Shown here in pieces: positions 14,858 through 39,768 of a stretch of 39,768 nucleotides of DNA (position 1 is the stretch's first letter; each line of letters opens with the position of its first letter). The DNA comes from a virus. Made by a program: the position numbers and the translations under genes. The notes under the pieces were generated by a model. It had not been told where the DNA came from and did not search any database. It worked only from the letters and a program-made list of their open reading frames with translations. The stretch lies in the IMG/VR virus record IMGVR_UViG_3300020039_000041. One strand, 5' to 3'.

Positions 14858-15694
14858 ATGAATTACGAGGAAATCAAACGTCGCGTTTCGGCGTGGGGGA
14901 TTCAATCCGAATTCTCCACGTCCGAAAAGGCGGCGATTGAGGAAATATATTTCGCGGTGTTCGGGCGTTCGATTCCCAATTGTAATTGTCCGAATCGACA
15001 CCGGGACGCCGTTATCGAATTACGCATATTCATAAAAAATCATTCGACAATGGAAAAGAAAAAATACGTCCTCAAGGCCGGGGTTGTTATTCAGCCGTCC
15101 GGAACCTCCGAGGTGTACACAAACGACAACCTCACCGACGCCGTCGCGGAACAGTTCCTCAAGGAACGCCCCGGGGCGCGTGGATTGTTTGAGGTAATAC
15201 CGGAACCCGGCGACGCCGGGAAAGGCCCGGAGAACGAAAAAGAGGCCGCAACAACGGCCGAAAACGACGCCCTCCGCGCCGAGGTTGAATCCCTCAAGGC
15301 CGAAAACGAGTCCCTCAAGGTTGAACTCGCCAAAATGACGGAATACCGCAACCGCGCCGTTGCGGACCTCGACAAGATTATCAAGGTCGCCGAGGCGGGC
15401 GGTTTCAAAATCGACCTTTCCGGCGAGGCCGCAAAGGTAACGACCGAGAAACCCGCCGAACAGGAACCCGAACAGGAACCCGAACAGGAACCCGAACAGG
15501 AATCCGAAAAGGCCGCCGCCGAGAAACCCGGACTCAATCCGGAAATCCTCGCCGCAATCAAGGCCCGCCTCGAGGCCGGGGACACAAAGTCCGCAATCGT
15601 TAAGGATTACGTCGGAATGGAGGTTGACGGAAAACCCCTCACCGAATACGGGGTTAAAAAGTATATCGCCGCCGCAACCGTTCCGGCCGAATAA
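14858..15694 (+). CDS. Hypothetical coiled-coil protein with an EQEP tandem repeat
   Basis: 278 aa. Contains the coiled coil AENDALRAEVESLKAENESLKVELAKM followed by (EQEP)x4. Confidence 0.6.
   Translation: MNYEEIKRRVSAWGIQSEFSTSEKAAIEEIYFAVFGRSIPNCNCPNRHRDAVIELRIFIKNHSTMEKKKYVLKAGVVIQPSGTSEVYTNDNLTDAVAEQFLKERPGARGLFEVIPEPGDAGKGPENEKEAATTAENDALRAEVESLKAENESLKVELAKMTEYRNRAVADLDKIIKVAEAGGFKIDLSGEAAKVTTEKPAEQEPEQEPEQEPEQESEKAAAEKPGLNPEILAAIKARLEAGDTKSAIVKDYVGMEVDGKPLTEYGVKKYIAAATVPAE
15458..15505 (+). repeat. 12-bp tandem repeat, 4 copies (gaacaggaaccc)
   Basis: Three exact copies and one variant (gaacaggaatcc), encoding EQEPEQEPEQEPEQES. Confidence 0.85.
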
Positions 15695-15706: not shown

Positions 15707-16918
15707 ATGAACATCAAAAACACCAAAAAACCCGAAACGCGAATCGACGTACGGTATCTTTCCTCCCTCGGAATCAAGACGTACGGCGCGGACAACCTGT
15801 ATCCGCAAGAATTACACGACATCGTGTCGGCGTCGTCTTGCGGCCGTACCTGTTTGGAACGCCGTATAACTTACATTGAGGGGAACGGCCTTGCGTCGCA
15901 ATCGTTGTCCGATTTCATTTGTAACACGGGCGGGGAAACGGTGGACGACGTTCATTCCCTTTTGTCGGCGGATTGCGGCGAATACGAGGGTATCGCAATA
16001 CACGTCAATTATAATATCGCCGGAAACATCGTTTCCCTCGCGCAAATGCCGTTCGAGTGTGTACGCCTCGAGGAGGAGGACGAACACGGGATTATTTCAC
16101 ACGTTATTTTCCACCCCGATTGGAGGGGGAAAAAGACCCGGAACGGAAAGTCCGTCAAGGTCGACAAACAGTCAATCGAAATTTTCCCCGTATTCAATCC
16201 GGACCCCGAAATCGTACAGGCCCAAATCGTCGCGGCCGGGGGAATCGAGTTTTACAAGGGACAAGTCTTGTATATTTCCCGGGCCGGACGCCTCCGGTAT
16301 CCAATCCCGGCGTACGACACCGTTTTAACGGATATGTCGACCGACGAGGGATTGTCGAACGTTTCCAACCGTAACGTACGAAACAATTTCCTCGCGGGTG
16401 GTATCCTTTGGGTCAAGAGGGGGCAAATGCGCCCCCTCCCTCCCGAGGGTTCCGAGGTATTCGACGGAAAGGACCAACCCGAAAACAACGGGGATTTCGA
16501 CGAGTTTATCGAAAGTATCGAGTCGTTGCAAGGCGACACGAATTCGTGTAAAATCGCCGTTTGCGAGGGCGAGGTCGACGAGGAGAAACCCGAGTTCATT
16601 TCCTTTGCGCCGAAAAACTTTGACAAGGAATTCGACTCGACGAACAAATCGGTCGTCGAAAAGATATACGCCGCGTTCAATCAAGAAATGTTCGCACGAC
16701 TCCGGACGGGTTCGATTGGATTCTCCGGGGACCTCGCAAACGACGTGAAAAAGGAATATTGCGAACAGGTCACGAAATACCAACGTATGTTGACCCGCGC
16801 GTACAACCTTATTTTCTCGCATTGGGAACCCGACGACCTCCTCCCGTTCAACGGGCCGGACGACATTAAGATTGAACCCCTCGTTAAATCAGTAACCCAA
16901 AACCCCGACGCGGAATGA
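15707..16918 (+). CDS. Putative portal protein
   Basis: 403 aa. It is the largest otherwise unassigned head-module ORF and has an acidic segment. The call rests on size and position only. Confidence 0.4.
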   Translation: MNIKNTKKPETRIDVRYLSSLGIKTYGADNLYPQELHDIVSASSCGRTCLERRITYIEGNGLASQSLSDFICNTGGETVDDVHSLLSADCGEYEGIAIHVNYNIAGNIVSLAQMPFECVRLEEEDEHGIISHVIFHPDWRGKKTRNGKSVKVDKQSIEIFPVFNPDPEIVQAQIVAAGGIEFYKGQVLYISRAGRLRYPIPAYDTVLTDMSTDEGLSNVSNRNVRNNFLAGGILWVKRGQMRPLPPEGSEVFDGKDQPENNGDFDEFIESIESLQGDTNSCKIAVCEGEVDEEKPEFISFAPKNFDKEFDSTNKSVVEKIYAAFNQEMFARLRTGSIGFSGDLANDVKKEYCEQVTKYQRMLTRAYNLIFSHWEPDDLLPFNGPDDIKIEPLVKSVTQNPDAE

Positions 16919-17445: not shown

Positions 17446-18360
17446 ATGAAAGTAAATCCCAAAATCGGCGGACTATTAACCGCCCTTTTCACCTCCTCCG
17501 GGTCGACGATTGAGTTGTCCTCAATCGAAAAGGCGACCCTCTATTTTGTAACGCCGGATTACCGCCTCGTCGCGGCCGAAATGGAAAAGGACGAAACCCT
17601 CGAAAAGTTCGTCGCCCGCCTTTCGGAAACCGCCCTCCCGGTCGGTAATTTCCGCGTGTTCGCGGTTGTCGATTTGACCGACGACGGCGGGTCCCTCATA
17701 ACCCCCGTTGTTAACGCGTTCGACGTGTCGGTCCGAATCGGGTTCACAATCTCGGATTTCGTGTTCCCGACCTCGGAATTATCCTCGACCGTCCGCGAGG
17801 CGTTCGACGCCGACAAACTCCCCGTAACCAACGTTGACGGCGCGTTACTCGTTTGGGACGCCGCCTCCGGGAGTTACATTCAGTCCGGAACGAAACTCGC
17901 GTTCGTATTGCCGGACGACATCCTTTCCCCGTCCGACCTCGAGTCGGTCGTCCTCGGACTCCTCCACACGGACGCCGCCGTTACCGAGGCGACGGCCGCC
18001 GCAACCGAGGCCGCCGAACGCGCGAACGAGGCCGCCGACGCCGCCTCCGGAATCGTTGACGACGTGGACGGACACATCGACGAACGCGTTTCCGTTCTCG
18101 CCCACGCCGAGGACACCCTCGCCGAGGGACAAAAGACCCTCGCGGAACGAATCGACGGTATCGTGTCCGGTGAAACCCTCGTCGAATCCCTCAACGTCCG
18201 CAAACTCGGCGTTTGGGGTGAAAATAACCTCATTATCGTTGCGACCAACGCCCCGGACCGCAAACCCGACCGCGCCGGGCAATTTTGGATTGACAAGGCG
18301 AACAACGCCGTTTACAAGTCCACCGGGAACAACGGTATTGACGATTGGAAAACGGTATAA
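17446..18360 (+). CDS. Fibre protein 1 (Ala-rich stalk and conserved C-terminal knob)
   Basis: 304 aa. The stalk is AATEATAAATEAAERANEAADAASG. The C-terminus, ...LNVRKLGVWGENNLIIVATNAPDRKPDRAGQFWIDKANNAVYKSTGNNGIDDWKTV, is paralogous to the next gene. Confidence 0.6.
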   Translation: MKVNPKIGGLLTALFTSSGSTIELSSIEKATLYFVTPDYRLVAAEMEKDETLEKFVARLSETALPVGNFRVFAVVDLTDDGGSLITPVVNAFDVSVRIGFTISDFVFPTSELSSTVREAFDADKLPVTNVDGALLVWDAASGSYIQSGTKLAFVLPDDILSPSDLESVVLGLLHTDAAVTEATAAATEAAERANEAADAASGIVDDVDGHIDERVSVLAHAEDTLAEGQKTLAERIDGIVSGETLVESLNVRKLGVWGENNLIIVATNAPDRKPDRAGQFWIDKANNAVYKSTGNNGIDDWKTV

Positions 18361-18386
18361 CAGGCAAAACCAAAATTCAATATACA

Positions 18387-19469
18387 ATGTATTACGTCAA
18401 AACAGGTTACGGGTGTGGACTCAAGGTTTCCCTCGTCCAACCCTCCGGGGCCGCCGTTGACCTCCGCAAGGTTCGTTATATCGGCGCGGTTCTCCGGCTC
18501 CCGGGCGGTCAAACAATGACCGTTTCGGACATCAATTTCGACGAACTCACGAATAACGTATTTGTCCGCCTCCTCCCGACCCGGGAACTCACGACCGAGG
18601 GCAATTATGCAATTGTGTTCAACGTCAAGTTGTCCGACAACACAATGTATTCAACCCAACTCGTCGAAATTATCAACGTCGACGCCGACAATCCGGCCGG
18701 GTACATCGAAACCACAATCGCAATGTCCCTCACGGTGGTAAATTTCCCCTCGAACGTGGACGTTACGGGTTGTTCGCCGAAAGTAAGCGACAACAATACG
18801 TGGTTAGTGTACGACGACAACCTCAACGCGTACGTTGACACCGGGGTTTCCGTCGGTTACGCCGAACTCACGACCCGTTACGACGGTGTGTTCGCGTCAA
18901 TCATTACCCCGGCAACCGAGGCGACCGACGCCGCCAATACCGCCGCCGGAAACGCGAACGACGCCGCCGCCTCTGCAACCTCGGCGGGCGCGTATGCAAG
19001 CGAAAAAGCACAGGCGGCCGAGTCCGCCGCCGGGAACGCCTCGGAAAAGGCCGCCGCCGCGAATACCGCCGCCGCGAACGCAAATGAAAAAGCAACGGCC
19101 GCGAACAATGCCGCAAGCGCGGCAAACGACGCCGCCTCCGCCGCGACGTCGGCCGCCGCCGCCGCAACCGCCGCCGTCGTGAATATGGACACCGTTTTCG
19201 GGGTCCTCGCACACGCCGACGCGACGATTGAAAAGAAACTCGATACCCTCGCGAAACTTGTTATCGGGATTATCTCCGGAACTGTTCTCGTCGAGAAACT
19301 CAACGTACGGAACCTCGGTGTTTGGGGTGACAACAACCTCGTCGTCGTGGGTTCCGGTGCGCCGACCGCGAAACCGGACCGCGCGGGTCAAATCTACATT
19401 GACAAGACCAACAACGCGACGTATAAGTCGACCGGAAATTCGGCCGTATCCGATTGGAAAACCATTTAA
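18387..19469 (+). CDS. Fibre protein 2 (paralog of 17446-18360 with a longer Ala-rich stalk)
   Basis: The ATG at 18387 lies within ORF 18345-19469. The stalk is TEATDAANTAAGNANDAAASATSAG...AAANANEKATAANNAASAANDAASAATSAAAAATAAV. The C-terminus is ...LNVRNLGVWGDNNLVVVGSGAPTAKPDRAGQIYIDKTNNATYKSTGNSAVSDWKTI. Confidence 0.6.
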   Translation: MYYVKTGYGCGLKVSLVQPSGAAVDLRKVRYIGAVLRLPGGQTMTVSDINFDELTNNVFVRLLPTRELTTEGNYAIVFNVKLSDNTMYSTQLVEIINVDADNPAGYIETTIAMSLTVVNFPSNVDVTGCSPKVSDNNTWLVYDDNLNAYVDTGVSVGYAELTTRYDGVFASIITPATEATDAANTAAGNANDAAASATSAGAYASEKAQAAESAAGNASEKAAAANTAAANANEKATAANNAASAANDAASAATSAAAAATAAVVNMDTVFGVLAHADATIEKKLDTLAKLVIGIISGTVLVEKLNVRNLGVWGDNNLVVVGSGAPTAKPDRAGQIYIDKTNNATYKSTGNSAVSDWKTI

Positions 19470-19481
19470 TAAACTACAATT

Positions 19482-20798
19482 ATGCAAGTCAACAATTACG
19501 AAACAAAGGCCGCATACGAGGCCGACAACACCCGGTCGAGGACCGCGTCGGCCGTGTCAAAGATTGTCGAGGAATCCGCCGCAATTTTTGACGGCGTGAA
19601 CACCGTTGTTTACGACAAGAACCTCGCCGGAATCGGCGACCTCGTCGTTAAGGACACCGTCCGAAACGTCCTCGCGTTCATCAAGGCCGGAACGGTCAAG
19701 AAAACCCAAATCCCCGCAACCCTCAAACCCGTTGCGGAGGTGTTCGGCCGCAAGGGGGACAAGGTCCTCATTACCGCCCTCGAAAACCTTTCCGCCCGTT
19801 GGGGACATCCTTTCGAGGTCCTCATTTCGGGAATCAACAACGCCCTCGGCGGAACCCTCGCAATCGTCGTTCACAACAACGGCGCATTGACCGAGGAGGT
19901 CGACGTTTCGTGGGAGGCGGACGCCTCCCTCGAGTCAATCGCCGCGAGTATCAACGCACAGTTCCAAACCCTCACCGACGCCGACGATAAGGCGTGGGTC
20001 GCCTCGGTTCTCGGAAATCAAATCATCCTCGCGCACAATTACAACCTCAAGGACACCGTCGATTCCATAACCGGGACCGGAGGCGGCGCGGGTGTTACCT
20101 TTGTGGAGGACGACCACAATTGGCAAGTCGAATACGCGTACCTTTCCGGCGCGGAGTCTATCCGCCGAAACAACGGCGTCGATTCCTATTTCGCCGGGGG
20201 TAATTACAAGAAATTCCTCGACTATTACAAGACGAACGGGTCCGTCCCGGACGCAAACGTCCCCCTCGGTTCGTCAACGATAGTCAAACAAGACGCGTTC
20301 GAGAACTCCGAGTATTGCGCCGACCTCCGCGCCGCGTATCCGGATTATTCCTCGTACCTGTTCGGCGAACATTTCGCACAGTATCCGAACGCATACGGCG
20401 CAATGTTGCGCGACGGCAAGGAAACAACCGACCTCCTCGCCTCCCTCAAGGGGACCGTCGTTCGCGGTGCGAACGAACCCCGTTTCCCCGCCGCCGCCGC
20501 CGCGAAAAATTACGCGGTCGCCGACGCCCCGGAAATTGATTGGTGGTTGCCGTCCGTCGAGGAAATCCTTTTGTTAATGGCCGAACGTCGTTTGAACTCC
20601 GCCGACACAATGGAGGACCCGTTCAACGACACCGCCGTTGAAATGCAGACCGCGACCGCATACGGTAACGGTTATTACCCGTGGACCTGTTGCGAGTATT
20701 ACAGTAACTACGCGTTCCTCTTTAACGGCACCAACGGCACCGTGTACGACACCAGCAAGGTCAACGCGTACACGGTTCGTCCCGTTTCCGCTTTGTAG
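19482..20798 (+). CDS. DGR target protein 1 (receptor-binding protein candidate with a DUF1566/C-type-lectin-like C-terminus)
   Basis: 438 aa. The C-terminus, IDWWLPSVEEILLLMAERRL...YYPWTCCEYYSNYAFLFNGTNGTVYDTSKVNAYTVRPVSAL, contains VR1 in its last 35 codons. Confidence 0.85.
   Translation: MQVNNYETKAAYEADNTRSRTASAVSKIVEESAAIFDGVNTVVYDKNLAGIGDLVVKDTVRNVLAFIKAGTVKKTQIPATLKPVAEVFGRKGDKVLITALENLSARWGHPFEVLISGINNALGGTLAIVVHNNGALTEEVDVSWEADASLESIAASINAQFQTLTDADDKAWVASVLGNQIILAHNYNLKDTVDSITGTGGGAGVTFVEDDHNWQVEYAYLSGAESIRRNNGVDSYFAGGNYKKFLDYYKTNGSVPDANVPLGSSTIVKQDAFENSEYCADLRAAYPDYSSYLFGEHFAQYPNAYGAMLRDGKETTDLLASLKGTVVRGANEPRFPAAAAAKNYAVADAPEIDWWLPSVEEILLLMAERRLNSADTMEDPFNDTAVEMQTATAYGNGYYPWTCCEYYSNYAFLFNGTNGTVYDTSKVNAYTVRPVSAL
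20690..20795 (+). repeat. DGR variable region VR1
   Basis: Aligns to TR 21384-21489 with 15 mismatches. 14 fall at TR adenines and 1 at a TR thymine. Confidence 0.9.
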
Positions 20799-20820
20799 AC
20801 GGTTCAAAAGTTTTTCAGTT

Positions 20821-20865
20821 GGCGCGGCGGTTCGTCCGCTTGACGGCGACCGTCCGCGCCTTTTC
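20821..20865 (+). terminator. GC-rich extended hairpin plus T-run downstream of VR1 (a terminator and possibly the DGR target-recognition hairpin)
   Basis: ggcgcgg (20821-27) pairs with ccgcgcc (20854-60). Inner pairings are cggt/accg and cgtc/gacg. tttt follows. Confidence 0.65.
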
Positions 20866-20879
20866 ATATTTCGGAAATA

Positions 20880-21335
20880 ATGTCACATCCAAAAACAAGA
20901 CTCTCGATAATTGACAAACTCGACGTCCTCGGGAAAGAATACCGATTCTCGTTGAAATTGTATCCGACGGTCGAGAATTTCGACCGGAAATTCAAGTTCA
21001 CAATCGGCGACCGGATTATCGACGCCGAGGAAAGGGCCGAGGAACTTATTATCGACGCAAACAGGACGACCGACCCCCTCAAGGCGGCCGGGTTCCTCCA
21101 CGACGCGTTGACCGAGTTTGAGAAAATCGAAACGAAACTCCGGAGGGCAACCGCCCCCGGCCTGTTATCGCCGGATACCGAGGGATTGTTATTCGTGGAT
21201 TTGGACGACATAAGGGGCGACGCGAAACATTGGAGGTCCTACTTTTTGAAAGAGTACAAACGACAACAAAAAGAGGGTCGGAGTTCCGGAGGGGAACAGG
21301 AACACCCCGCCGGGAGTGAACCCACAATGAATTGA
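20880..21335 (+). CDS. avd: DGR accessory variability determinant (Avd-like)
   Basis: 151 aa, predicted helical. FSLKLYPTVENFDRKFKFTIGDRIIDAEERAEELIIDANR...LHDALTEFEKIETKLRRA fits the four-helix-bundle Avd / 23S-IVS-protein pattern. It sits in the canonical position between the target gene and TR. Confidence 0.6.
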   Translation: MSHPKTRLSIIDKLDVLGKEYRFSLKLYPTVENFDRKFKFTIGDRIIDAEERAEELIIDANRTTDPLKAAGFLHDALTEFEKIETKLRRATAPGLLSPDTEGLLFVDLDDIRGDAKHWRSYFLKEYKRQQKEGRSSGGEQEHPAGSEPTMN

Positions 21336-21383
21336 TTATTTGAGAAAAGGTCCGGCCCCTCTCATTTAGACGGGTCGGAAAAC

Positions 21384-21492
21384 TTGCGAGTATAACAGTA
21401 ACAACGCGTTCATCTTTAACGGCAACAACGGCAACGTGAACAACAACAACAAGTACAACACGAACACGGTTCGTCCCGTTTCCGAATTTCTC
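21384..21492 (+). repeat. DGR template repeat (TR)
   Basis: A-rich and built of AAC codons in the VR reading frame (...aacaacggcaacgtgaacaacaacaacaagtacaacacgaac...). I count about 34 adenines. It shares the invariant 3' block acggttcgtcccgtttccg with both VRs. Confidence 0.9.
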
Positions 21493-22788
21493 GATAATAC
21501 CTCGGGAAATCCGGTGTTCGCGGCCCTTGTTTCCGAAATATTCCGGGCGTATCATATTTGTTTGTCGAACAAGGCAAACACCCCGCCCGCGTTACGGTTC
21601 CGCCTCGACGAGGCGGAGAATCTTTCCTCCCTTTGTCGGGAGGTCTATAATTTTGAGTACATCCCCCGTCCGTCAATCGCGTTTATCGTCACCGTCCCGT
21701 GTCCCCGGGAGGTGGTCGCGGCCGATTTCCGGGACCGGATTATTCATCATTATATCGTTATGAAACTCGAACCCCTGTTCGAGGGGTTGCACGTGTTCCA
21801 CCCGGACGTATATTCGTGTCGAGTCGGAAAGGGCAACCTCGCCGCAATCGAAAGGTTGCGGGACCGGATTTGGGTTGAATCAAAGGGTTACACGGTCCCG
21901 TGTTACGTCGCCTCGTTTGACCTACAATCGTTTTTTATGTCAATCGACAAACGGCGTTTATACGACGAACTCGTCGCCCTCGTACAAGAAAATTATTTCG
22001 ATTGGGACAAGGATTATTTGTTGTACCTTATCCGGGTAACGACATTTAATTCTCCCACGGAACACGCGATTCGACATTCCCCGTTGTCGGCGTGGGAACT
22101 CCTCCCGAAACACAAATCGTTGTACAATTTGGATTGGTTCCTCGGACTCGCAATCGGGAATTTGCCGTCGCAAACCGACGCGAATTTCTACAATTCGCCG
22201 TTCGTGTGGTGGTTGGTCGAGGTCGGCCTCGCCCCTGTTAATTACGTCGACGATTTTTACATCGTCGACCGGGACAAGGAAAAAATCCTCTCCGCAATGC
22301 CACATATCCGGACGTATCTTTCAACGGAACGTGGGTTGACCTTACATCCGCGCAAATTCGAGTTGCAACCCGTCGAACGCGGGTTCAAGTGTTTGGGCGG
22401 TATTGTGAAAGACGGCGAAATCTATGTCAACAAACGAACCGTTGCGCGTTGCTTTTGCAAAATCCATTGGTACAACGAGGAGGTCGGAAAGACACACCGA
22501 CACCGCGCCAAATACGCGGAAAAGTTCGTCGGAATCCTCAATTCGTACCTCGGGATTATGTCGCATTATTCGTCCGGGTCGACGCGTCGAAAGATTGCCG
22601 AAACCGTGTTGTCCGTTTGGGAGGGTTATATCGTATTCGACGAGGCGTTCACAAAGGCCCGTCCCGTATCGAAATATTGTCGGTTGAAACAGGCGCGATT
22701 CCACGCCCGCGTGAACCGACGGAACGATTTGTCAATTATAAACCAATTCAACAATGAACAATCGAGAATCAATCGTTCGTCGAATTGA
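21436..22788 (+). CDS. DGR reverse transcriptase (GTG start at 21436, or more likely 21514)
   Basis: RT domain motifs are AADFRDRIIHHYIV, the DGR-typical LAIGNLPSQ (I/LGxxxSQ) and NYVDDFYIV. There is no in-frame ATG near the 5' end. Confidence 0.9.
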   Translation: MNNNNKYNTNTVRPVSEFLDNTSGNPVFAALVSEIFRAYHICLSNKANTPPALRFRLDEAENLSSLCREVYNFEYIPRPSIAFIVTVPCPREVVAADFRDRIIHHYIVMKLEPLFEGLHVFHPDVYSCRVGKGNLAAIERLRDRIWVESKGYTVPCYVASFDLQSFFMSIDKRRLYDELVALVQENYFDWDKDYLLYLIRVTTFNSPTEHAIRHSPLSAWELLPKHKSLYNLDWFLGLAIGNLPSQTDANFYNSPFVWWLVEVGLAPVNYVDDFYIVDRDKEKILSAMPHIRTYLSTERGLTLHPRKFELQPVERGFKCLGGIVKDGEIYVNKRTVARCFCKIHWYNEEVGKTHRHRAKYAEKFVGILNSYLGIMSHYSSGSTRRKIAETVLSVWEGYIVFDEAFTKARPVSKYCRLKQARFHARVNRRNDLSIINQFNNEQSRINRSSN

Positions 22789-24960: not shown

Positions 24961-25115
24961 TGTGGTGCTGGGAACGACCGAACGGTTGCAAGGTCGGGAT
25001 TTTGTAAGTTGTTGAGAATTCCGGCGAAATCGGCCTTTGTGCAATGTCTTGCAAGGTTTCCACGGCGAGGATTGCAACGCCGGGATTGCGCCCCATTGCA
25101 ATAATCCGCAAACAG

Positions 25116-25158
25116 GTTGACGAAAATTCGGGTTTTTGTCAACGGTTTTGTATCTTTG
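25116..25158 (+). promoter_or_regulatory. Integrase promoter region: imperfect palindrome followed by a TATCTTTG -7 box
   Basis: gttgacgaaaa-N6-tttttgtcaac (one mismatch) at 25116-25143. The -7 box is at 25151-25158 and the ATG at 25179. Confidence 0.5.
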
Positions 25159-25178
25159 CGGGGTACAAATTGGAAAAT

Positions 25179-26510
25179 ATGCCTACAATCAAAAAATCGT
25201 TGTCGTCAAAGGTTGACGGCGACGGAAAGTCCGAAATCCTGTTGCGGTTCTCCGGAGGACGGGACGCCGTGTTCCGCGTCAAGTCCGGAATCCGGATTCC
25301 TCCGGCCCGGTGGAACGTCAAGGAATCCCGGATTATCATTCCCCGTTTGGAAACATCGGAACAACGCGACCTCGTCAAGGCGGCAAAGGAACTCGACGAC
25401 GTTTGCAACCTGTTAATCGAGGCGTACACGGCCGCCGACAAAACGACCGTGTCGCGGGAGTGGTTCGCCGACATCCTCGACCGATACCGACACCCGGAGA
25501 AAAACACGCCCTCCGGAGGGGATTTTTTCGGCGCGTTCGAAAAGTTCCTCAGCGACAACGAGTCCTCCCGGCCCCGGGAAAATCATTTCAAGGTATTAGA
25601 ACGACAACTCCGGCGGTTCGAACTGTATTCCGGCCGGGAGTGGGAACTCGACACCGTGTCGGCCGACGACCTCGCCGCGTTTAAGGATTTCCTCGTCAAC
25701 GAACACGCGATATTCAAGGACAAGAAATTCGAATTCATATACACGGCCGTTCCGGAGTCACGGACGCCGGGTCCCCGTGGTTACAACGCAATCGGAAACT
25801 CGTTGCGCCTGTTCCGAACGTTTTTCAATTGGTGTATCAAACACCGTTTGACGACGAATTATCCGTTCCGGGAATACTCAATCGAGGCCCCGGTTTACGG
25901 AACCCCGTATTATATCACCCTCGAGGAACGCGAACGTATCGCCGGGGCGGATTTGTCCTCCCGGCCGCAAGTCGCGACACAACGGGACGTGTTCGTCTTT
26001 CATTGTTGTATCGGTTGCCGGGTCGGGGACCTGTTGCGCCTCACCCGGGCGAACATTATTGACGGCGCGGTCGAGTATATCGCCCGCAAGACATCCGGCG
26101 AACGCCCGGTAACAATCCGGGTCCCCCTCAACAACACCGCAAAGGAAATCCTCGAAAGATACAAGGATTTCCCCGGTCCCGGCCTATTGCCGTTCATATC
26201 CTCCCAAAAGTACAACGACGCAATTAAAACCGTGTTCCGCCTCGCCGGAATCGACCGGGTCGTTACGGTCCTCAATCCCCGGACCCGCCGGGAGGAACAA
26301 CGGCCGTTGTACGAAATCGCCTCGTCCCACCTCGCCCGGCGAACGTTCATCGGGAACCTATACAAACAAGTCAAGGACCCGAACCTCATTTCGTCCCTCT
26401 CCGGACACGTCGAGGGGTCGACGGCGTTTTACAGGTATCGCAACGTTGACGAACAAATGAAACGGGACCTCGTCCGATTGTTGGACGAACCCGTCAAACC
26501 GACGGAATAA
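25179..26510 (+). CDS. int: Tyrosine recombinase / phage integrase (Bacteroidota type)
   Basis: The ATG at 25179 (MPTIKKSL) lies within ORF 25044-26510. Catalytic-domain residues appear in CCIGCRVGDLLRL (Arg), SSHLARRTF (HxxR) and GHVEGSTAFYRY (Tyr). Confidence 0.92.
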   Translation: MPTIKKSLSSKVDGDGKSEILLRFSGGRDAVFRVKSGIRIPPARWNVKESRIIIPRLETSEQRDLVKAAKELDDVCNLLIEAYTAADKTTVSREWFADILDRYRHPEKNTPSGGDFFGAFEKFLSDNESSRPRENHFKVLERQLRRFELYSGREWELDTVSADDLAAFKDFLVNEHAIFKDKKFEFIYTAVPESRTPGPRGYNAIGNSLRLFRTFFNWCIKHRLTTNYPFREYSIEAPVYGTPYYITLEERERIAGADLSSRPQVATQRDVFVFHCCIGCRVGDLLRLTRANIIDGAVEYIARKTSGERPVTIRVPLNNTAKEILERYKDFPGPGLLPFISSQKYNDAIKTVFRLAGIDRVVTVLNPRTRREEQRPLYEIASSHLARRTFIGNLYKQVKDPNLISSLSGHVEGSTAFYRYRNVDEQMKRDLVRLLDEPVKPTE

Positions 26511-29885: not shown

Positions 29886-29953
29886 CGAACAATTTAACCC
29901 GCCGTAAATGGCAAATATATGTAATTTTTGAACGAAACACAAACAAATTGGAT

Positions 29954-30781
29954 ATGACCCTCGAACGAAAAGTCGATTTTGCAATCAAACTGTTGCGGTC
30001 AATTCCGACCGACGACGGCCCGATTGAATTGTCGTATTCCGGCGGCAAAGACTCCGACGTTATCCTCGAACTCGCCCGTATGTCGGGAATTCCTTTCGAG
30101 GCGATTTACAAGAATACGACAATCGACCCTCCGGGGACCCTCTCGCATTGCCGGGAACAAGGGGTTACAATCCTCAAACCGAAACTCACATTTTTACAAC
30201 TCGTCGAGAAAAAGGGGACGCCGTCCCGGTTCGCGCGTTTTTGTTGCGAGGCCCTCAAGGAATACAAGGTGTACAACCGCGCAATACAAGGAATTCGCCG
30301 CGCCGAATCCACCGCCCGGGCGAAACGATACCACGAACCCGAAATTTGCCGGGTTTACTCCGCAAAGGAAAAGGTCCGCGTTTACCTCCCTATACTCGAA
30401 TGGACGGACGAGGACGTCGCCCGGTTCATTGAGGAACGCGGTATCAAGTGCGCCCCGCTTTATTACGACGAGTCCGGCCGTTTCCACGTCGAACGCCGCC
30501 TCGGTTGTATTGGTTGCCCCCTTGCGGCCGACAACGGCCTCGCCGATTTCAAACAGTATCCTAAACTCCTCAAGCAAGTAATCGAGGCGAAAAAGCGGTT
30601 TTACGAAACCCACCCGAACGCCGGGAAAACCTTTGACCGGAACGTTTACAACGGATTGTATTTTCAATTCTTTTGCCGGAATCTCGACGACTACCGGGTC
30701 GCAATAGGGGGGGGTCTATTTCCGGAACAAGCAATTGACACGCAACAATTTTTGTCCGAGTATTTCGGAATCGAGTTATAA
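29954..30781 (+). CDS. PAPS/APS-reductase-family PP-loop enzyme with a CC...CxxC Fe-S motif
   Basis: The ATG at 29954 lies within ORF 29948-30781. The PP-loop is LSYSGGKDSDV, and the cysteines are ARFCCEALK and LGCIGCPLA. Confidence 0.8.
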   Translation: MTLERKVDFAIKLLRSIPTDDGPIELSYSGGKDSDVILELARMSGIPFEAIYKNTTIDPPGTLSHCREQGVTILKPKLTFLQLVEKKGTPSRFARFCCEALKEYKVYNRAIQGIRRAESTARAKRYHEPEICRVYSAKEKVRVYLPILEWTDEDVARFIEERGIKCAPLYYDESGRFHVERRLGCIGCPLAADNGLADFKQYPKLLKQVIEAKKRFYETHPNAGKTFDRNVYNGLYFQFFCRNLDDYRVAIGGGLFPEQAIDTQQFLSEYFGIEL

Positions 30782-30806: not shown

Positions 30807-31322
30807 ATGAAACACACATTTTCAATTTTCATCGTGAACCCCGCAAACGGGGAGTTCGTAACCCTCGCCGATTGGTCGAAAACCGAGAACCCCGCCTCCG
30901 CCGAATTCGTCGCGATTGTCCGCGAGGATAAATCCGGAATCATTATCGCAAGGGACCCCGTCAAGGTTGACGGCGAAATCAATTTCGAGTGGAAAAAGGC
31001 CGTCGAACTCGCAAAGGCGTTCAAACCCGCGACGGACGTTGCCGCCCTCGCCGTCGAGGGATTCCGCCTCCCGGACCGCCGCGAGGCCCTCGACATTTAC
31101 GACGCCCGTTTTCAAGGACTCGACGACGCCCTCGCCCTTATCGGCGGAACCCCTGTTCATACAGGCGACGCCCGTTGGATATGGACCGAGGACGAGGACC
31201 CGGACCCCGAGTATAACAGTAACTACGCGTTCCTCTTTAACGGCGGCAACGGCTACGTGGGCTACCACTACAAGTACTACGCGGGCCCGGTTCGTCCCGT
31301 TTCCGCTTTTCTCCCGTTTTAG
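30807..31322 (+). CDS. DGR target protein 2 (small DUF1566/CLec-like protein carrying VR2)
   Basis: 171 aa. FRLPDRREALDIYDA...RWIWTEDEDPDPEYNSNYAFLFNGGNGYVGYHYKYYAGPVRPVSAF. I see no obvious signal peptide or lipobox. Confidence 0.85.
   Translation: MKHTFSIFIVNPANGEFVTLADWSKTENPASAEFVAIVREDKSGIIIARDPVKVDGEINFEWKKAVELAKAFKPATDVAALAVEGFRLPDRREALDIYDARFQGLDDALALIGGTPVHTGDARWIWTEDEDPDPEYNSNYAFLFNGGNGYVGYHYKYYAGPVRPVSAFLPF
31208..31313 (+). repeat. DGR variable region VR2 (remote)
   Basis: Aligns to TR 21387-21492 with 17 mismatches, all at TR adenines. Confidence 0.9.
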
Positions 31323-31392
31323 GTTTTGAGGTTTAATCGTTCCCGGCCCGGTTCGCCCCGGCGAGGGGTTGACCGGGACGGGGTTAAAGACA

Positions 31393-31698
31393 ATGAAAAC
31401 AAACGTTATTCAACAAATCATTCTCGCCCTCGTTGGGTTCGCAATCCTGTTCGTCGGGTTCCTGTTGTTCATTTCCGTTTGCGGGGAACCCTCGCCGGAA
31501 TACAACGCCCGCCTCGAGGAACTGTTCGGTTGGTTTGCGTGGTTCGCCTCGCTTGTCGACAACATCCTCCGGGGCCTCGCCGGGGCCGCGTTAATGTGGC
31601 TCGGTTATAAGGTTTACCCGTTCCACGACGAGAAACCCGCCCCGGACGCCGGGAACGCCTCAAACAATGAATCATTAAACCCAATTCGCAATGAATAA
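31393..31698 (+). CDS. Small membrane protein (2-3 TM segments)
   Basis: The ATG at 31393 lies within ORF 31369-31698. Hydrophobic segments are IILALVGFAILFVGFLLFISV and FGWFAWFASLV...AALMWLGY. Confidence 0.6.
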   Translation: MKTNVIQQIILALVGFAILFVGFLLFISVCGEPSPEYNARLEELFGWFAWFASLVDNILRGLAGAALMWLGYKVYPFHDEKPAPDAGNASNNESLNPIRNE

Positions 31699-32205: not shown

Positions 32206-34278
32206 ATGGATATTCGTATTATTTCCCTCAAAATTCAAAATTTCAAAGGCATACAGGACCGGACGTTCGAGTTCGGCGGCGCAAATGCAAACATCGTCGG
32301 CGAAAACGGCCTCGGCAAGTCGACAATCTTTGACGCGTTCACGTGGTTGTTGTTCGGCAAGGACCACCGGAACACCGTTCAAAACAAGTTCGAAATCGTA
32401 CCAATCGACCCGGCGACCGGGGAACAGGTCCACCACCTCGAAACCCTCGTCGAGGCCGAACTCTCGACCGACGGCGTCAAAACAACCCTCCGCCGTGTTT
32501 GGCGTGAAACGTGGTCCCGCGCAAAGTCGACCGTCGAATCCAAATTGACGGGTCACGAATCGTTGTTCTATGTTAACGGCGTGAACGTCGACACCCTCGA
32601 GAATTACAACAAGTTTATCGGCGAACTTGTCGACGAAAAGATTTTCCGCCTCATTACCGACCCGTTGTTTTTCATCGGCGATACGACCGACAAAAAGGCC
32701 CGCCGCGAGGCCCTGTTAACCCTCGTCGGGGACTCAATCGACAAGGCCGCAATCCGCGAGAAATACGCCGGGATTATTGCCAAAATGAACGGGGAGGATA
32801 TTGTCACGTTCCGCAAACGTATTGCGTCCGAAAAACGCGACATCAAACGCGACCTCGCCGCCTGTGACCCGCAAATCTCCGCTTATACGGATTCCCTCCC
32901 GGCCCCGGAGGATTACGACGCCCTCGCAAAGGAAATCGACACCCTCGCGGCAAAGACCGACAAGGAACTCGCCGACGTACAGGCCGAAATAAAACAGGTC
33001 GACGAATCTATCGCCGACATCCGCAAGGCCGACAACCTCGCCGCCGGGGAAATCTCCCGGAAACGTCAACAGGTATCCGAACTCCGACTCAAGGCCCGAA
33101 AACTCATTGACGACCGTTTCGCCGAGGTTCAATCCCGGAATTACGAAATCGGTTCCGCCGCCCGGACCGCCACCCTCAAGGTGGAACAGTTGGACCGCAA
33201 GATTGCCGACGCAAACGCGACCCTCGAGAACATCCGTTCCGGTATCGAGTCCGCAAAGGCCGAACGCGCCTCAATCGAGGCAAAGGTCGAGGGAATCAAA
33301 CAGTCAATCGCGGCCGTCAAGACCCGCGCGTTCGAGTACAACGGGGAAACCGTGTGTCCCGCTTGCGGACAACCCCTCCCGGCCGAGAACATCGAACACG
33401 CCCGCGAGGTCGCCCTCGAACATTTCACCGCCGACAATCAACAGGAAATCGACCGCCTCCGGAAATCTGCGTTGTCCTTGCAACCTCGATACGACACCCT
33501 CGGGGCCGACATCAACAACGCCTCCGCCCGTATCGAACTAATCGAGGCCGAACTTGTCAAGACCCGCGCCGCCCGCGAGGAGGCCGAACAGGAACGCACA
33601 ACCGCCGCCGCGACGCCCACCCTCAAGACGGACGGAATCGAACAGGCCGTCAAGACATCCCCGGAATACGTCGCCCTCGAGGAGGAAATCGCCCGAATCG
33701 AGGCCGAAATCGGTTCCCCGGTAACGACCGACGTTTCCGGCCTGTTATCCAAACGCCGCGAACTCGAGTCGAAACAGGACGTTATCCGCAAGGCGTACAC
33801 CGCCGACGTTGACCCCCTCAAAAAACGCCTCGCCCGCCGGGAGGAGGCCGACCGTATCAAGGCGAAAATCGCCGCAAAGGAGGAGGACAAACAAAGGTTC
33901 ACCGAACGCCTCGCCGAACTCGAACAAATGGAATTCGACGCGGCCGAGTATGTCCGCGAGGATATATCCGCCGTCGAGGGCGCAATCAACGCCCGTTTCA
34001 AGATTGCCCGGTTCCGTATGTTCGACACCCTCGTAAACGGGGACGTCGTCGAGGATTGTACCGTTATGGACGCAAACAACGTCCCGTACGGGTCAATGAA
34101 CGACGCAAAACGAATCCTCGTCGGAATGGACGTAATCGCGGCCTTTTGCGAGGCGTACGGCGTGAACGCACCGATATTTGTTGACAACGCCGAATCAATC
34201 ACCGTGTCCCGGTTCGACGTCGCGTCGCAAGTTATCCGCCTCTCGGTCGTCAAGGGCGCGGACCTCACAATCGAATAA
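32206..34278 (+). CDS. Rad50/SbcC-like SMC-family ATPase with a zinc hook
   Basis: 690 aa, from the ATG at 32206. Walker A is GENGLGKST. Long coiled coils flank CPACGQPL, and the C-terminus carries the Walker B/D-loop PIFVDNAES. Confidence 0.8.
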   Translation: MDIRIISLKIQNFKGIQDRTFEFGGANANIVGENGLGKSTIFDAFTWLLFGKDHRNTVQNKFEIVPIDPATGEQVHHLETLVEAELSTDGVKTTLRRVWRETWSRAKSTVESKLTGHESLFYVNGVNVDTLENYNKFIGELVDEKIFRLITDPLFFIGDTTDKKARREALLTLVGDSIDKAAIREKYAGIIAKMNGEDIVTFRKRIASEKRDIKRDLAACDPQISAYTDSLPAPEDYDALAKEIDTLAAKTDKELADVQAEIKQVDESIADIRKADNLAAGEISRKRQQVSELRLKARKLIDDRFAEVQSRNYEIGSAARTATLKVEQLDRKIADANATLENIRSGIESAKAERASIEAKVEGIKQSIAAVKTRAFEYNGETVCPACGQPLPAENIEHAREVALEHFTADNQQEIDRLRKSALSLQPRYDTLGADINNASARIELIEAELVKTRAAREEAEQERTTAAATPTLKTDGIEQAVKTSPEYVALEEEIARIEAEIGSPVTTDVSGLLSKRRELESKQDVIRKAYTADVDPLKKRLARREEADRIKAKIAAKEEDKQRFTERLAELEQMEFDAAEYVREDISAVEGAINARFKIARFRMFDTLVNGDVVEDCTVMDANNVPYGSMNDAKRILVGMDVIAAFCEAYGVNAPIFVDNAESITVSRFDVASQVIRLSVVKGADLTIE

Positions 34279-34289
34279 ACCCTCAAGAT

Positions 34290-34625
34290 ATGGACCTCCT
34301 CGAACTCGCCCGGACCAATCCGGAAATAACAATATCAATCCGCCTCGGCGACCTGTTGACCGCCGCCCGGACGATTATTGCGGACACCCGCGCCGAATTG
34401 GAACAGGCGGTCGCCGCCTCGAACTCGGATTTCCTTATTCCCCGGGAGGACGTCGCGCAAATGTTACGCGTCGACGAATCCACGTTGTACCGTTGGGAAA
34501 AGGAATACGGGTATTTACTCCCGGTCCGGAGGGGTTCGAGGGTCTTTTATAAGAACTCCGATATTCAACCAATACTCAACGGGACGAAACCCCGTCCCTC
34601 AAAGGTCACACACATTCAAAAATAA
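34290..34625 (+). CDS. MerR/excisionase-type HTH protein (Xis candidate)
   Basis: 111 aa. Contains REDVAQMLRVDESTLYRWEKEYGYLLPVRRGSRVFYKNSDI. Confidence 0.55.
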   Translation: MDLLELARTNPEITISIRLGDLLTAARTIIADTRAELEQAVAASNSDFLIPREDVAQMLRVDESTLYRWEKEYGYLLPVRRGSRVFYKNSDIQPILNGTKPRPSKVTHIQK

Positions 34626-34631
34626 CTCATT

Positions 34632-35582
34632 ATGTCGAACAAACCCGCATTGACACTCGACCAATTGGCCGTGGTTAACAAAAACAAGATTGAACAGGCC
34701 GTAACGAACAAAATTGCGGCAATGTCACAGGCCGGAGGAATCCGGATTCCTCAAGGATTCCACCCGGGAAACGAAATTTCCCTCGCCCTCCTCGAACTCT
34801 CGGAACGCAAGGAAAAGGACGGAACCCCGACCCTCGCCGTCGTGGAGTCCTCGTCCGTCGCGCAATCCCTGTTCCGAATGTGTATCCTCGGATTATCACT
34901 CGCGAGGAAACAATGTTCGTTCATCCGGTACGCAAACAAACTCACATTTCAACCGCAATATCACGGTAATATTGCCCTTGCAAAACGCCTCGGAGGGGCC
35001 GGGCAACCCCGCGCACAGGTTATTTACGAGGGCGACGAGTTCGAGTACATTATCGACACCAAAACCGGAAACAAGGTCGTCACGAAACACGTTCAAAAAC
35101 TCCAAAACATCGACAACGCAAAGATTGTCGGCGCGTGGTGTTTGATTCCGTACGAGAACGACCCGGAACGTCAACCGTACGTCGAGGTTATGACCCGCGA
35201 CGAAATATTGACCGCGTGGCAACAGGGACCCACGGCGGGCAAATCCCCGGCACACCTCAAGTTCACGCAAGAAATGTCTAAAAAGACGGTTATTAACCGC
35301 GCGTGTAAACTCTTTATTACGGCCTCCGACGAGTCCGGAATGTACGAGTCGTACACCAACAACGACAACGACCTCACAAAGGACGCCCCGGACGAACAAC
35401 CCGGAGAAACAATCGAGGTCAACCTCGACGCCCTCGACGAGGGAAAGGTCGAACAGGCCGTCAAGGACGCCCCGGTCGTCGCCGACAAGGAAACGGGCGA
35501 GGAAACCGCCGCGCCCGCGCCGACTCCGGCGGCCGAATCCCCGGCCCCGGCCGAACAGGGTTCCGGATTGTTCAACCTGTAA
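34632..35582 (+). CDS. recT: RecT-family single-strand annealing recombinase
   Basis: 316 aa. Contains SVAQSLFRMCILGLSLARKQCSFIRYANKLTFQPQYHGNIALAKR...VINRACKLFI and an acidic/Pro-rich tail. Confidence 0.75.
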   Translation: MSNKPALTLDQLAVVNKNKIEQAVTNKIAAMSQAGGIRIPQGFHPGNEISLALLELSERKEKDGTPTLAVVESSSVAQSLFRMCILGLSLARKQCSFIRYANKLTFQPQYHGNIALAKRLGGAGQPRAQVIYEGDEFEYIIDTKTGNKVVTKHVQKLQNIDNAKIVGAWCLIPYENDPERQPYVEVMTRDEILTAWQQGPTAGKSPAHLKFTQEMSKKTVINRACKLFITASDESGMYESYTNNDNDLTKDAPDEQPGETIEVNLDALDEGKVEQAVKDAPVVADKETGEETAAPAPTPAAESPAPAEQGSGLFNL

Positions 35583-35594
35583 TCGTTCCGGAGT

Positions 35595-36344
35595 ATGAAA
35601 TTACACGTAATCGCGACCGGGTCGTCCGGTAACTGTTACGTCCTCGAGGGGACAACGTCCGCCCTCGTTATCGAGGCGGGCGTATCCCCGGAAAAGGTGT
35701 TCCAACGGGTCCGTATGTCGACCCGCAAAATCGCCGGGGTTATCATTACCCACGAACACGGCGACCACGCGGGATTTATACACCGTTGGTTGGTCCTCGG
35801 GTTCCGGGTCTATATGTCCGCCGGGACCCGGGAGGCCCTCCGCCTCAACGATTCCCGCCTCGTCGACATCCTCAAGGCGTGGACCGCGTATTCCCTCGGC
35901 GCGTTCTCGGTCCGGCCGTTCCCGGCCGTCCACGACGCCGCCGAACCCCTTTCGTTCATTATCGACTCGGAGGAATCCGGGCGAATCCTGTTCGCGACCG
36001 ATACCGGGCGAATCGGGTATTCGTTCCGGACGGGTAACATCCGACACCTCGTCGTCGAGGCGAATTACTCCGATTCCCTCATTAACGACGGCCTCAACCG
36101 GGGAACCCTGTTCCCGGCCCTTGCAAAACGTATCCGGGAGAATCATTTATCCCTCGAACGTTGCCGGGAGTTCGTACAGGAACACAACACCGCCGCCCTC
36201 GAGAACGTCGTTTTGATTCATTTGTCGGGCGACAACGCCGACCCGGGGATATTCCGCGATACAATCGCGAAAACGGCCCCGTACGCGAACGTTTGTGTCG
36301 CGGTCAAGGATTTAGTCGTCCCGCTTAATAAACTCTCAATATAG
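35595..36344 (+). CDS. Metallo-beta-lactamase-fold hydrolase/nuclease
   Basis: 249 aa. Has the HxHxDH motif VIITHEHGDHAG. Confidence 0.8.
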   Translation: MKLHVIATGSSGNCYVLEGTTSALVIEAGVSPEKVFQRVRMSTRKIAGVIITHEHGDHAGFIHRWLVLGFRVYMSAGTREALRLNDSRLVDILKAWTAYSLGAFSVRPFPAVHDAAEPLSFIIDSEESGRILFATDTGRIGYSFRTGNIRHLVVEANYSDSLINDGLNRGTLFPALAKRIRENHLSLERCREFVQEHNTAALENVVLIHLSGDNADPGIFRDTIAKTAPYANVCVAVKDLVVPLNKLSI

Positions 36345-39085: not shown

Positions 39086-39744
39086 ACCCGCGTTCCGAAA
39101 TATACAACGTCGATTGCCTCGAGTATATGCGAACACTCCCGGACAACGCGTTCGACCTCGCCGTTGTCGACCCGCCGTATGGAATCAACGCGGGAAAAAT
39201 GACAATGGGAATCGGAACGCGCCGGACGTATTCTCGCGACAAAGATTGGGACGCCGGAGTCCCCGGCCCGGAGTATTTCGAACAGTTATTCCGCGTGGCC
39301 CGTGAACAAATAATTTGGGGCGGAAATTACTTTCAACTCCCGTTGTCTGAGGATTGGATTGTTTGGGACAAAATGAATTACGGACGGTCCTTTTCCGAGG
39401 CGGAATTCGCGTGGTGTTCGATACATCGAAAAATACGCGTTTTCCGGTTCCGTACGACAACACCCGTCGAGGGCGGCAAGATTCACCCGACACAAAAACC
39501 CGTGGAGTTGTACACGTGGATTTTGTCAAATTATGCACGGGGGGGGTCACGGATATTCGATTCTCACCTCGGGTCCGGGGCCTCAAGAATCGCCGCGTAT
39601 CAACTCGGAATGGATTTCGTCGGTTGCGAATTGGACCCGGATTATTTCCGCGCCTCGGACGAGTGGTTCAACCGCGTTTGTCGAGGAATCGTCGTCGACG
39701 CGGCCGGGAATCAAACGCAACAATTAAACCTCTTTGACGTATGA
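39082..39744 (+). CDS. DNA methyltransferase, beta-class N6A/N4C (DPPY)
   Basis: 220 aa, from the ATG at 39082 within ORF 38962-39744. Motif IV is VVDPPYG, followed by HPTQKP, then motif I, FDSHLGSGAS. This motif order (IV before I) is that of the beta class. Confidence 0.88.
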   Translation: MNPRSEIYNVDCLEYMRTLPDNAFDLAVVDPPYGINAGKMTMGIGTRRTYSRDKDWDAGVPGPEYFEQLFRVAREQIIWGGNYFQLPLSEDWIVWDKMNYGRSFSEAEFAWCSIHRKIRVFRFRTTTPVEGGKIHPTQKPVELYTWILSNYARGGSRIFDSHLGSGASRIAAYQLGMDFVGCELDPDYFRASDEWFNRVCRGIVVDAAGNQTQQLNLFDV

Positions 39745-39768
39745 AACAGGAAACAATGACGGCGGCCG
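39670..39768. repeat. Terminal direct repeat, copy 2 (identical to 1-99)
   Basis: Exact 99-nt match to the window start. Confidence 0.9.

Follow-up and report, generated by a model that had tools for sequence, protein, structure and literature searches.

A diversity-generating retroelement with one template and two variable repeats in the genome of a ruminant-gut phage

The viral genome recorded in IMG/VR as IMGVR_UViG_3300020039_000041 (39,768 nt, analysed over its whole length and referred to here as the window) carries a reverse transcriptase (RT) gene immediately downstream of a short repeat of the 3' end of a neighbouring gene, raising the question of whether this locus is a functional diversity-generating retroelement (DGR) and, if so, which proteins it diversifies. 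The original prediction, made from the sequence without database searches, had placed a complete DGR at 19482-22788. The cassette and a first target gene do lie within this interval, but a second target gene (30807-31322) that forms part of the same element had been left out. The data presented below argue, with a probability that we put at roughly 0.93, for a functional DGR with one template repeat (TR) and two target genes, each ending in a variable repeat (VR), in a temperate phage of about 39.7 kb with a Bacteroidota host. The parts of the element are all on the plus strand.

Template, variable repeats and the DGR cassette

VR1 (20690-20790) forms the 3' end of target gene 1 (19482-20798) and the TR is located downstream at 21384-21484, the two aligning exactly and without gaps at an offset of 694 nt, in agreement with the earlier observation that the last 35 codons of ORF 19482-20798 are repeated downstream. 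Comparisons were made over a 98-nt core, the part common to all repeat copies (TR 21387-21484; 35 A and 63 non-A positions). In this core VR1 differs from the TR at 12 template adenines and at 1 position elsewhere (Fisher p = 1e-5). When both strands of the whole window were scanned for TR-like sequence with adenine positions ignored, one further copy was found, VR2 (31208-31305), which lies 9.8 kb downstream of the TR and forms the 3' terminus of a 171-aa ORF (target gene 2); no TR-like copy was present on the minus strand of the window. All mismatches between VR2 and the TR core (15/15) fall at TR adenines (Fisher p = 1.8e-8). Across four TR/VR pairs the adenine bias reached p values down to 4e-10, with template adenines replaced by T (22), G (19) or C (15), and 16 cassette-bearing loci together gave 208 mismatches at TR adenines against 14 elsewhere. 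Read in the VR frame, 13 of the 34 TR codons are AAC and adenines occupy codon positions 1, 2 and 3 in 18, 18 and 1 cases, respectively.

These exact alignments leave the adenine specificity that had been proposed for this locus standing, with some adjustment of the counts. Fifteen mismatches, 14 of them at adenines, had been reported between 20690-20795 and 21384-21489; the 14 at adenines are correct, but the total over that block is 16, the other two being at T. One of these two, at the final base (21489), is outside the homology, and trimming the block to 21384-21486 gives 15 mismatches with 14 at A. Likewise, the downstream copy is built of AAC codons as described, but contains 37 adenines in the block rather than approximately 34.

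An invariant 3' block after which VRs and TR diverge had also been noted, and the exact alignment agrees. In VR1 the mutagenised part (20700-20769) is followed by an invariant block (20770-20790) resembling an initiation of mutagenic homing (IMH) sequence and then by CT (20791-20792). The invariant 3' block reads ACGGTTCGTCCCGTTTCCG, with CT following in the VRs and AA in the TR (21485-21486), where the block is IMH*-like; the GC-rich invariant block that ends both VRs, CGGTTCGTCCCGTTTCCG, is likewise succeeded by CT (31306-31307 in VR2), the TR having AA at this point. Homology between TR and VR2 is regained after the AA, at 21487-21492, the TTTCTC that follows the CT of VR2 being identical to the TR. 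Five lineages with RTs no more than 52-57% identical to that of the window retain this discriminator (VR with CT, TR with AA or AT). CT versus AA/AT after the GC-rich block would constitute an IMH/IMH* pair.

The element has the order target(VR)-avd-TR-RT on one strand, the BPP-1-type architecture that had been claimed for it. The avd (accessory variability determinant) gene (20880-21335) encodes 151 aa matching phrog_3206 ('Avd protein of DGR', E = 4.4e-14), the PHROG family to which BPP-1 Avd (8.8e-29) and bAvd of phage F2 also belong, and its product is 25% identical to F2 bAvd by BLASTP (E = 2e-5). The 151-aa Avd-like ORF of the original prediction is therefore present and matches this Avd family, although the family named in advance, PF05635, gave no match. 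The RT (21514-22788; 424 aa from GTG 21514) matches phrog_1423 (E = 7e-69), which also contains BPP-1 Brt, and scores above the Pfam gathering score for RVT_1. Its best match in the PDB is 8ub7 (E = 1.8e-14), a 328-aa chain in which the aligned residues are those of BPP-1 Brt, whereas a group II maturase reaches only 4.5e-3; Avd and target 1, likewise searched against PDB sequences, gave nothing meaningful. BLASTP aligns the RT with Brt over approximately 310 aa at 25% identity (E = 3e-17), pairing IGNLPSQ with IGSLTSQ and YVDD with YMDD, and both predicted motifs, IGNLPSQ and YVDD, are present in the RT translation. RTs of the DGR clade carry the motif [ILV]GxxxSQ where group II RTs have QGxxxSP. 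On sequence grounds, the profile, PDB and BLASTP matches would thus place the enzyme with DGR RTs and not with the retron or group II groups.

In the VR frame the TR reads through, with no change of frame, into the RT ORF, which is open from GTG 21436 inside the TR (450 aa), and automatic gene calls start the RT there. GTG 21514 is the preferred start because the residues encoded between the TR and this codon change freely among relatives.

Target proteins and their variation among relatives

Both VRs encode the last ~35 codons of their target ORFs. Target 1 (438 aa) is predicted to consist of beta-rich N-terminal and middle domains and a C-terminal domain carrying VR1, and target 2 (171 aa) of a short N-terminal beta domain and a domain carrying VR2, with AlphaFold2 (AF2) models at pLDDT 94.1 and 91.7, respectively. 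The best Foldseek match of target 2 was the C-terminal (DUF1566) domain of Legionella Lcl (8q4e; E = 1.2e-5, probability 1.0, TM 0.50/0.63); dozens of C-type lectin-like domains ranked behind it, and the DGR variable protein TaqVP gave a weak match. In target 1, the C-terminal domain also matched the Lcl domain 8q4e (probability 0.99), as well as DUF1566 proteins and proteins of phage tails, and the remaining domains are similar to the outer domains of flagellin and to phage tail proteins; the full-length target 1 model gave domain-level matches only, with low TM scores. The models support a DUF1566/Lcl-C-type C-type-lectin fold for both targets, a class assignment that follows the fold match to 8q4e, the Pfam scores being below threshold, and the structure prediction and Foldseek results agree with the fold suggested earlier for the target C-terminus. 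PF07603 is carried by two homologues of target 2. Homologues number 137 for target 1 and 61 for target 2, with 130 relatives of target 1 in IMG/VR, and tblastn of both targets against 50,697 phage genomes gave no match. Target 1 is presumably a host-receptor-binding tail protein. A small membrane ORF (31369-31698) is located just 3' of target 2; many proteins of 101-103 aa, one named 'transmembrane protein', share the 90%-identity cluster of target 2 and appear to correspond to this ORF.

Evidence of activity comes from comparison between genomes, in which the VR polymorphism that the original prediction called for is seen, confined to residues encoded by adenine-containing TR codons. Three IMG/VR genomes (L001, L002 and L003) with RTs 87-95% identical to that of the window are collinear with it; all 37 TR adenines are kept in them and the VRs differ. 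Changes at non-adenine TR positions are mirrored in the VR of the same genome, namely T to C in L001/L002, G to A in L002 and GGTGCGCCCC in L003, indicating transfer of template changes into the VRs. The TR and its 5' flank are nearly invariant in the four genomes, with surrounding DNA varying at 10-30% of sites. Among 16 target 1 proteins more than 90% identical to one another, VR residues encoded by adenine-containing codons take up to nine amino acids and those encoded by adenine-free codons never vary, the hypervariable residues being 406-431. Outside the VR, positions in the same 16 proteins are mostly two-state (three have three residues), often in common 11:5 or 12:4 splits. The target 2 family shows the same pattern, with an entropy of 1.92 bits at adenine-containing TR codons and 0.07 bits at adenine-free codons.

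The contribution of the cassette is apparent from relatives that lack it. For 75 informative IMG/VR loci of the target 1 family, a TR was present in 17, all with RT and Avd, and absent from 58, all of which lacked both within 3 kb. Gene pairs that diverge by less than 0.5% in the remainder of their sequence had a VR divergence of 0.190 with the cassette (26 of 27 pairs differing) versus 0.004 without it (15 of 18 pairs identical). This ties the hypervariability of the target 1 VR to the presence of the cassette.

Several further features of these relatives were observed. Most of the target 1 relatives at 40-45% identity (58 IMG/VR loci, L022-L092) have a VR-like C-terminus with no TR, Avd or RT within 3 kb, and the C-termini of these targets are identical across many independent contigs; they look like frozen VRs left after cassette loss, as seen in the 3 kb covered around each locus. 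In IMGVR_UViG_3300031998_001755 (L003/L016), where the VR is located approximately 700 nt upstream of the TR, the VR is one codon longer than the TR within a run of four AAC codons (ACC AAC TAC TAC GCC in the VR, AAC AAC AAC AAC in the TR), the indel being in-frame and of a kind described opposite AAC repeats by Wu et al. (PMC5758913). The T to G difference at VR1 position 20760 adjoins a mutated adenine, and cluster member P0190 has Asp at the same residue, also needing T to G, so this non-adenine change recurs.

Proposed mechanism, RNA elements and alternative explanations

By analogy with BPP-1, the Bordetella phage that carries the prototype DGR, the RT-Avd complex would bind an RNA that runs from the end of avd through the TR into the start of the RT gene. 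Reverse transcription, presumably cis-primed, would start at the 3' end of the TR, random nucleotides being inserted opposite template adenines, and the cDNA would take the place of the homologous VR in target gene 1 and also, 9.8 kb away, in target gene 2, in each case at the 3' end. In this scheme the CGGTTCGTCCCGTTTCCG block with CT in the VRs and AA in the TR would tell recipient from donor, and the GC-rich hairpin found after each VR probably helps homing. Since adenines fall almost only at codon positions 1 and 2, with 13 AAC codons, approximately 1e20 protein variants would be possible without stop codons at the AAC codons, and the scaffold residues of the lectin fold, encoded by adenine-free codons, would stay fixed.

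The likeness to BPP-1 is extensive. Order and position are the same (tail fibre, mtd with its VR, avd, TR, brt and then lysis genes), RT and Avd belong to the same PHROG families, TR/VR differences are adenine-specific, the target has a C-type-lectin fold, and both elements have an IMH-like block rich in GC and, after the VR, a GC-rich hairpin. However, the RTs are only 25% identical and Avd homology is undetectable by BLASTP, the window target being of the DUF1566/Lcl-C type and that of BPP-1 of the Mtd type. The window TR is also shorter (~101 nt compared with 134), the gap between TR and RT is at most ~29 nt or the two overlap, where BPP-1 has a 144-nt spacer, and the hairpin after the VR is ~20 nt from the stop codon rather than directly after mtd as in BPP-1. 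A second VR in a 171-aa ORF 9.8 kb downstream of the TR and a local covarying hairpin 5' of the TR further distinguish the window element.

The GC-rich post-VR1 hairpin (20820-20859) begins ~21 nt after the target 1 stop codon and is followed by TTTTC (DNA fold z = -3.5); its counterpart after VR2 (31342-31382), also GC-rich and ~20 nt after the target 2 stop codon, has no T-run after it and is kept in the relative L010. A hairpin 3' of target 1 was found in 8/8 distinct DGR-bearing downstream sequences, the stems being unrelated in sequence and L014/L015 showing a compensatory change. A GC-rich inverted repeat 3' of the VR but not of the TR occurs in approximately a third of DGRs (PMC5758913). 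The post-VR1 hairpin is a candidate DGR target-recognition inverted repeat, a candidate terminator, or both; it may act purely as a terminator, since a T-run follows it and since hairpins are also found at the distant target 2 homologues L011 and L012, for which no RT was detected in the fetched DNA. The sequence CGGTTCGYCC, present in six copies in place of 1.45 expected, five of them DGR-linked and one in each post-VR hairpin, was considered as a conserved motif and rejected as its hairpin copy is not kept even in the nearest relatives: L014/L015 have CGGCTCG with a compensatory change in the hairpin copy, and the other lineages have unrelated stems. What is conserved in the post-VR hairpins is thus structure and not motif.

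A structured RNA element is predicted immediately 5' of the TR (21344-21383), consisting of the conserved GAAAAGGT (21344-21351), a two-tier hairpin (21352-21378) and a run of A. The outer helix pairs 21352-21358 with 21372-21378 and the inner hairpin pairs 21360-21362 with 21368-21370. The element is invariant in the four genomes that otherwise vary at 10-30% of sites. Across four lineages the outer helix has entirely different sequences with complementarity kept, 6/6 pairs being changed on both sides, and 98% of cells are paired compared with 71% in shuffles (0/500 reaching the observed value) and 19-40% with slid partners. A covariance model of the element searched against 27 sources matched window-type sequences only, with no match in F2, MT836212, MT835523, BPP-1 or 17 cassette-less loci. 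On the other side of the TR a stem-loop is predicted at 21482-21512, the position of the Avd-binding stem-loop of BPP-1, but it is not consistently predicted in other lineages; more generally, what RNAfold and duplex prediction give 3' of the TR for the Avd-binding stem-loop, the primer duplex and the Stop duplex differs between lineages. In BPP-1 a segment upstream of the TR pairs with the ~140-nt spacer (bioRxiv 10.1101/2023.10.23.563531). As GTG 21514, the first plausible RT start, follows closely on the end of the TR at 21484, any spacer function must overlap the RT coding sequence. The pre-TR hairpin may replace or rework the 'cPRT Stop' duplex that these two segments form in BPP-1, with the remaining spacer functions located within the RT coding sequence. 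It is possible, although on balance doubtful, that this hairpin is an essential, undescribed DGR RNA element in one clade of Bacteroidota phages, or that target 2 has a non-virion, non-adsorption role; in the latter case the DGR might also diversify a protein whose function is other than adsorption.

Two other groups of elements are informative. The layout of the window element has a near counterpart in the Bacuni phages F1, F2 and F4 of Bacteroides uniformis, which have genomes of ~40 kb and a Bacteroidota host, and carry two DUF1566-type targets with the VR in the last ~35 aa, one adjoining Avd-TR-RT and one distant (PMC8143477). Their RT is the closest from a cultured phage (38-40% identity) and their Avd is 25% identical to that of the window; the inner hairpin sequence upstream of the TR in F2 is the same as in the window, and an integrase/recombinase and an amidase are encoded downstream. 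In contrast, the targets are not detectably homologous by tblastn, the pre-TR covariance model has no match in F2, and the window phage comes from the ruminant and not the human gut and is also found integrated. Targets with DUF1566, DUF823 or Fib_succ_major domains, such as that of the Legionella DGR, form category 'd'/CLec2 of Wu et al. 2018, who also report that non-adjacent targets are common in phage DGRs (PMC5758913). The window resembles the Legionella DGR in that the VR overlaps a weak DUF1566 (now Lcl_C) match and the C-terminal domain of Legionella Lcl heads the fold search. However, the Legionella element is chromosomal with a lipoprotein target, whereas that of the window has a gene of the phage structural module and a small second target.

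A number of observations weigh against a functional DGR with two lectin-type targets. VR1 has one non-adenine difference from the TR, T to G (TR 21454, VR1 20760). Neither the priming site nor the cPRT Stop duplex of BPP-1 had a counterpart that could be located in the window, and the distance from TR to RT start, at most ~29 nt, compares with 144 nt in BPP-1. The window Avd has no BLASTP match to BPP-1 Avd and scores below curated cut-offs (PF22296, bAvd, 23 bits versus 40; NCBIfam DivGenRetAVD, 26 versus 80), and the Pfam Lcl_C (PF07603) matches of the targets are below the gathering score (22.4 and 24.9 bits versus 34.9; target 1 E = 1.6e-4). Target 2 lies among early/recombination genes outside the structural module, and the virion location of either target is putative. 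Finally, the two other assemblies of the window genome (L004/L007 and prophage L006) match it with 100% identity, also in the VRs.

These points bear on three alternative explanations. That the RT belongs to another kind of retroelement (group II intron, retron or Abi-type), the repeat being an ordinary duplicated lectin segment diverged by point mutation or gene conversion, might be suggested by a weak match to the NCBIfam group II RT/maturase family TIGR04416 (50 bits against a cut-off of 300) and by database records in which homologous phage RTs are named 'retron-type'. This explanation is scarcely credible given the adenine specificity in four TR/VR pairs, the non-coding-like, AAC-rich character of a TR copy that stays invariant while the VRs vary, the adjacent Avd and BPP-1 Brt as the closest structural relative; in addition, an Rfam scan of 20700-21900 at E <= 1 gave no match, including for a group II intron or retron RNA or for the pre-TR hairpin. 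Recent inactivation, leaving a fossil DGR whose parts are recognizable but whose VR differences are historical, would be consistent with the identical VRs in three assemblies of the window genome and with the cassette loss and frozen VRs of many target 1 relatives, which imply that loss is common in this family. The identical assemblies provide no independent test, however, as they share the contig of sample ERZ3810914 or may come from the same population. The RT ORF is intact with its catalytic YVDD and IGNLPSQ motifs, the TR adenines are all kept, the TR and its 5' flank are the most conserved stretch of the locus, and close relatives with the same cassette have all-different VRs. Inactivation is consequently very improbable, and from its family and its intact parts we infer that the window's own copy of the cassette is active.

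More weight is due to the proposal that the DGR is real but that target 1 does not bind a receptor, the lectin domains binding something else instead, for example gut mucin or glycans, further surface structures or, in the case of target 2, a ligand that is intracellular or lysogen-expressed. What marks target 1 as a tail fibre is its gene position behind the portal gene and two fibre-like ORFs, weak PHROG matches on an alanine-rich segment and domain-level Foldseek matches; target 2 is encoded outside the structural module, with a PAPS-reductase-like gene on one side and recombination genes on the other, and neither target has a homologue in the deposited phage genomes searched. Nevertheless, in BPP-1 and the Bacuni phages the target adjacent to the cassette governs tropism (PMC8143477), and target 1 closes the structural block, with the cassette and the lysis genes coming immediately after it. 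We therefore regard a role other than receptor binding for target 1 as unlikely, and retain the reading of a functional DGR with two targets, the first of them presumably a receptor-binding protein.

The phage genome and its wider meaning

Positions 1-99 and 39670-39768 of the window form an exact 99-nt direct repeat, indicating a complete circular or terminally redundant phage genome of ~39.7 kb (about 39,669 bp). The same phage sequence is integrated within a 155-kb JGI metagenome contig (sample 3300010998; L006 1-9917), indicating that the phage is temperate. Identity between this prophage and the window begins near window position 24961, just upstream of the integrase gene (25044-26510), and no tRNA was found at the integration junction. 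A SusD-family gene in the host flank of the prophage (44.6 bits against a cut-off of 23.1) points to a Bacteroidota bacterium as host. An assignment to 'Oscillibacter', derived from a single match to a 2.9-kb contig binned into a goat-reticulum metagenome-assembled genome, was judged unreliable and set aside in favour of the host indicated by the SusD flank; goat reticulum is the origin of one close relative of the window phage.

Upstream of the cassette are a portal gene (15707-16918), a DUF6712 gene and two alanine-rich fibre-like ORFs, and downstream are genes for small membrane proteins, an amidase endolysin and the tyrosine integrase. The earlier statement that the DGR is attached to a fibre module is more weakly supported, by its position just 3' of the portal gene and by weak PHROG tail-fibre matches on an alanine-rich segment of the upstream ORF. 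The two fibre-like ORFs (17446-18360 and 18345-19469) have a C-terminal module of ~150 nt in common at 72% identity (18178-18329 and 19287-19438), which may be an attachment or assembly domain. A tandem EPEQ-type peptide repeat (CCGAACAGGAAC units) is encoded at 15456-15530 inside ORF 14858-15694, between capsid-region genes and the portal gene. Target gene 2 is flanked by the PAPS-reductase-like gene (29948-30781) and by genes for an SMC/AAA ATPase, a RecT protein and an MBL-fold protein (32206-36344); a faint precomputed Apyc1 (anti-Pycsar) match of the MBL-fold protein was not reproduced at E <= 0.001.

The DGR of the window is a textbook example of a known system and is evidently active. 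Gut Bacteroidota phages are already known to carry DGRs with DUF1566-type targets, a second, non-adjacent one among them (PMC8143477, PMC5758913), and as a DGR it adds little that is new. Its value lies in being a clean and complete example from a ruminant-gut temperate phage, belonging to a family that supplies a natural control: sister lineages without RT, Avd and TR have frozen VRs, whereas cassette-bearing, near-identical genes have all-different VRs. Beyond what is known, only this natural experiment in cassette loss and the pre-TR hairpin are of moderate added interest. The hairpin, together with the near absence of a non-coding spacer, suggests that the RNA architecture of BPP-1 is not universal, which could matter to DGR engineers and to models of cDNA priming.

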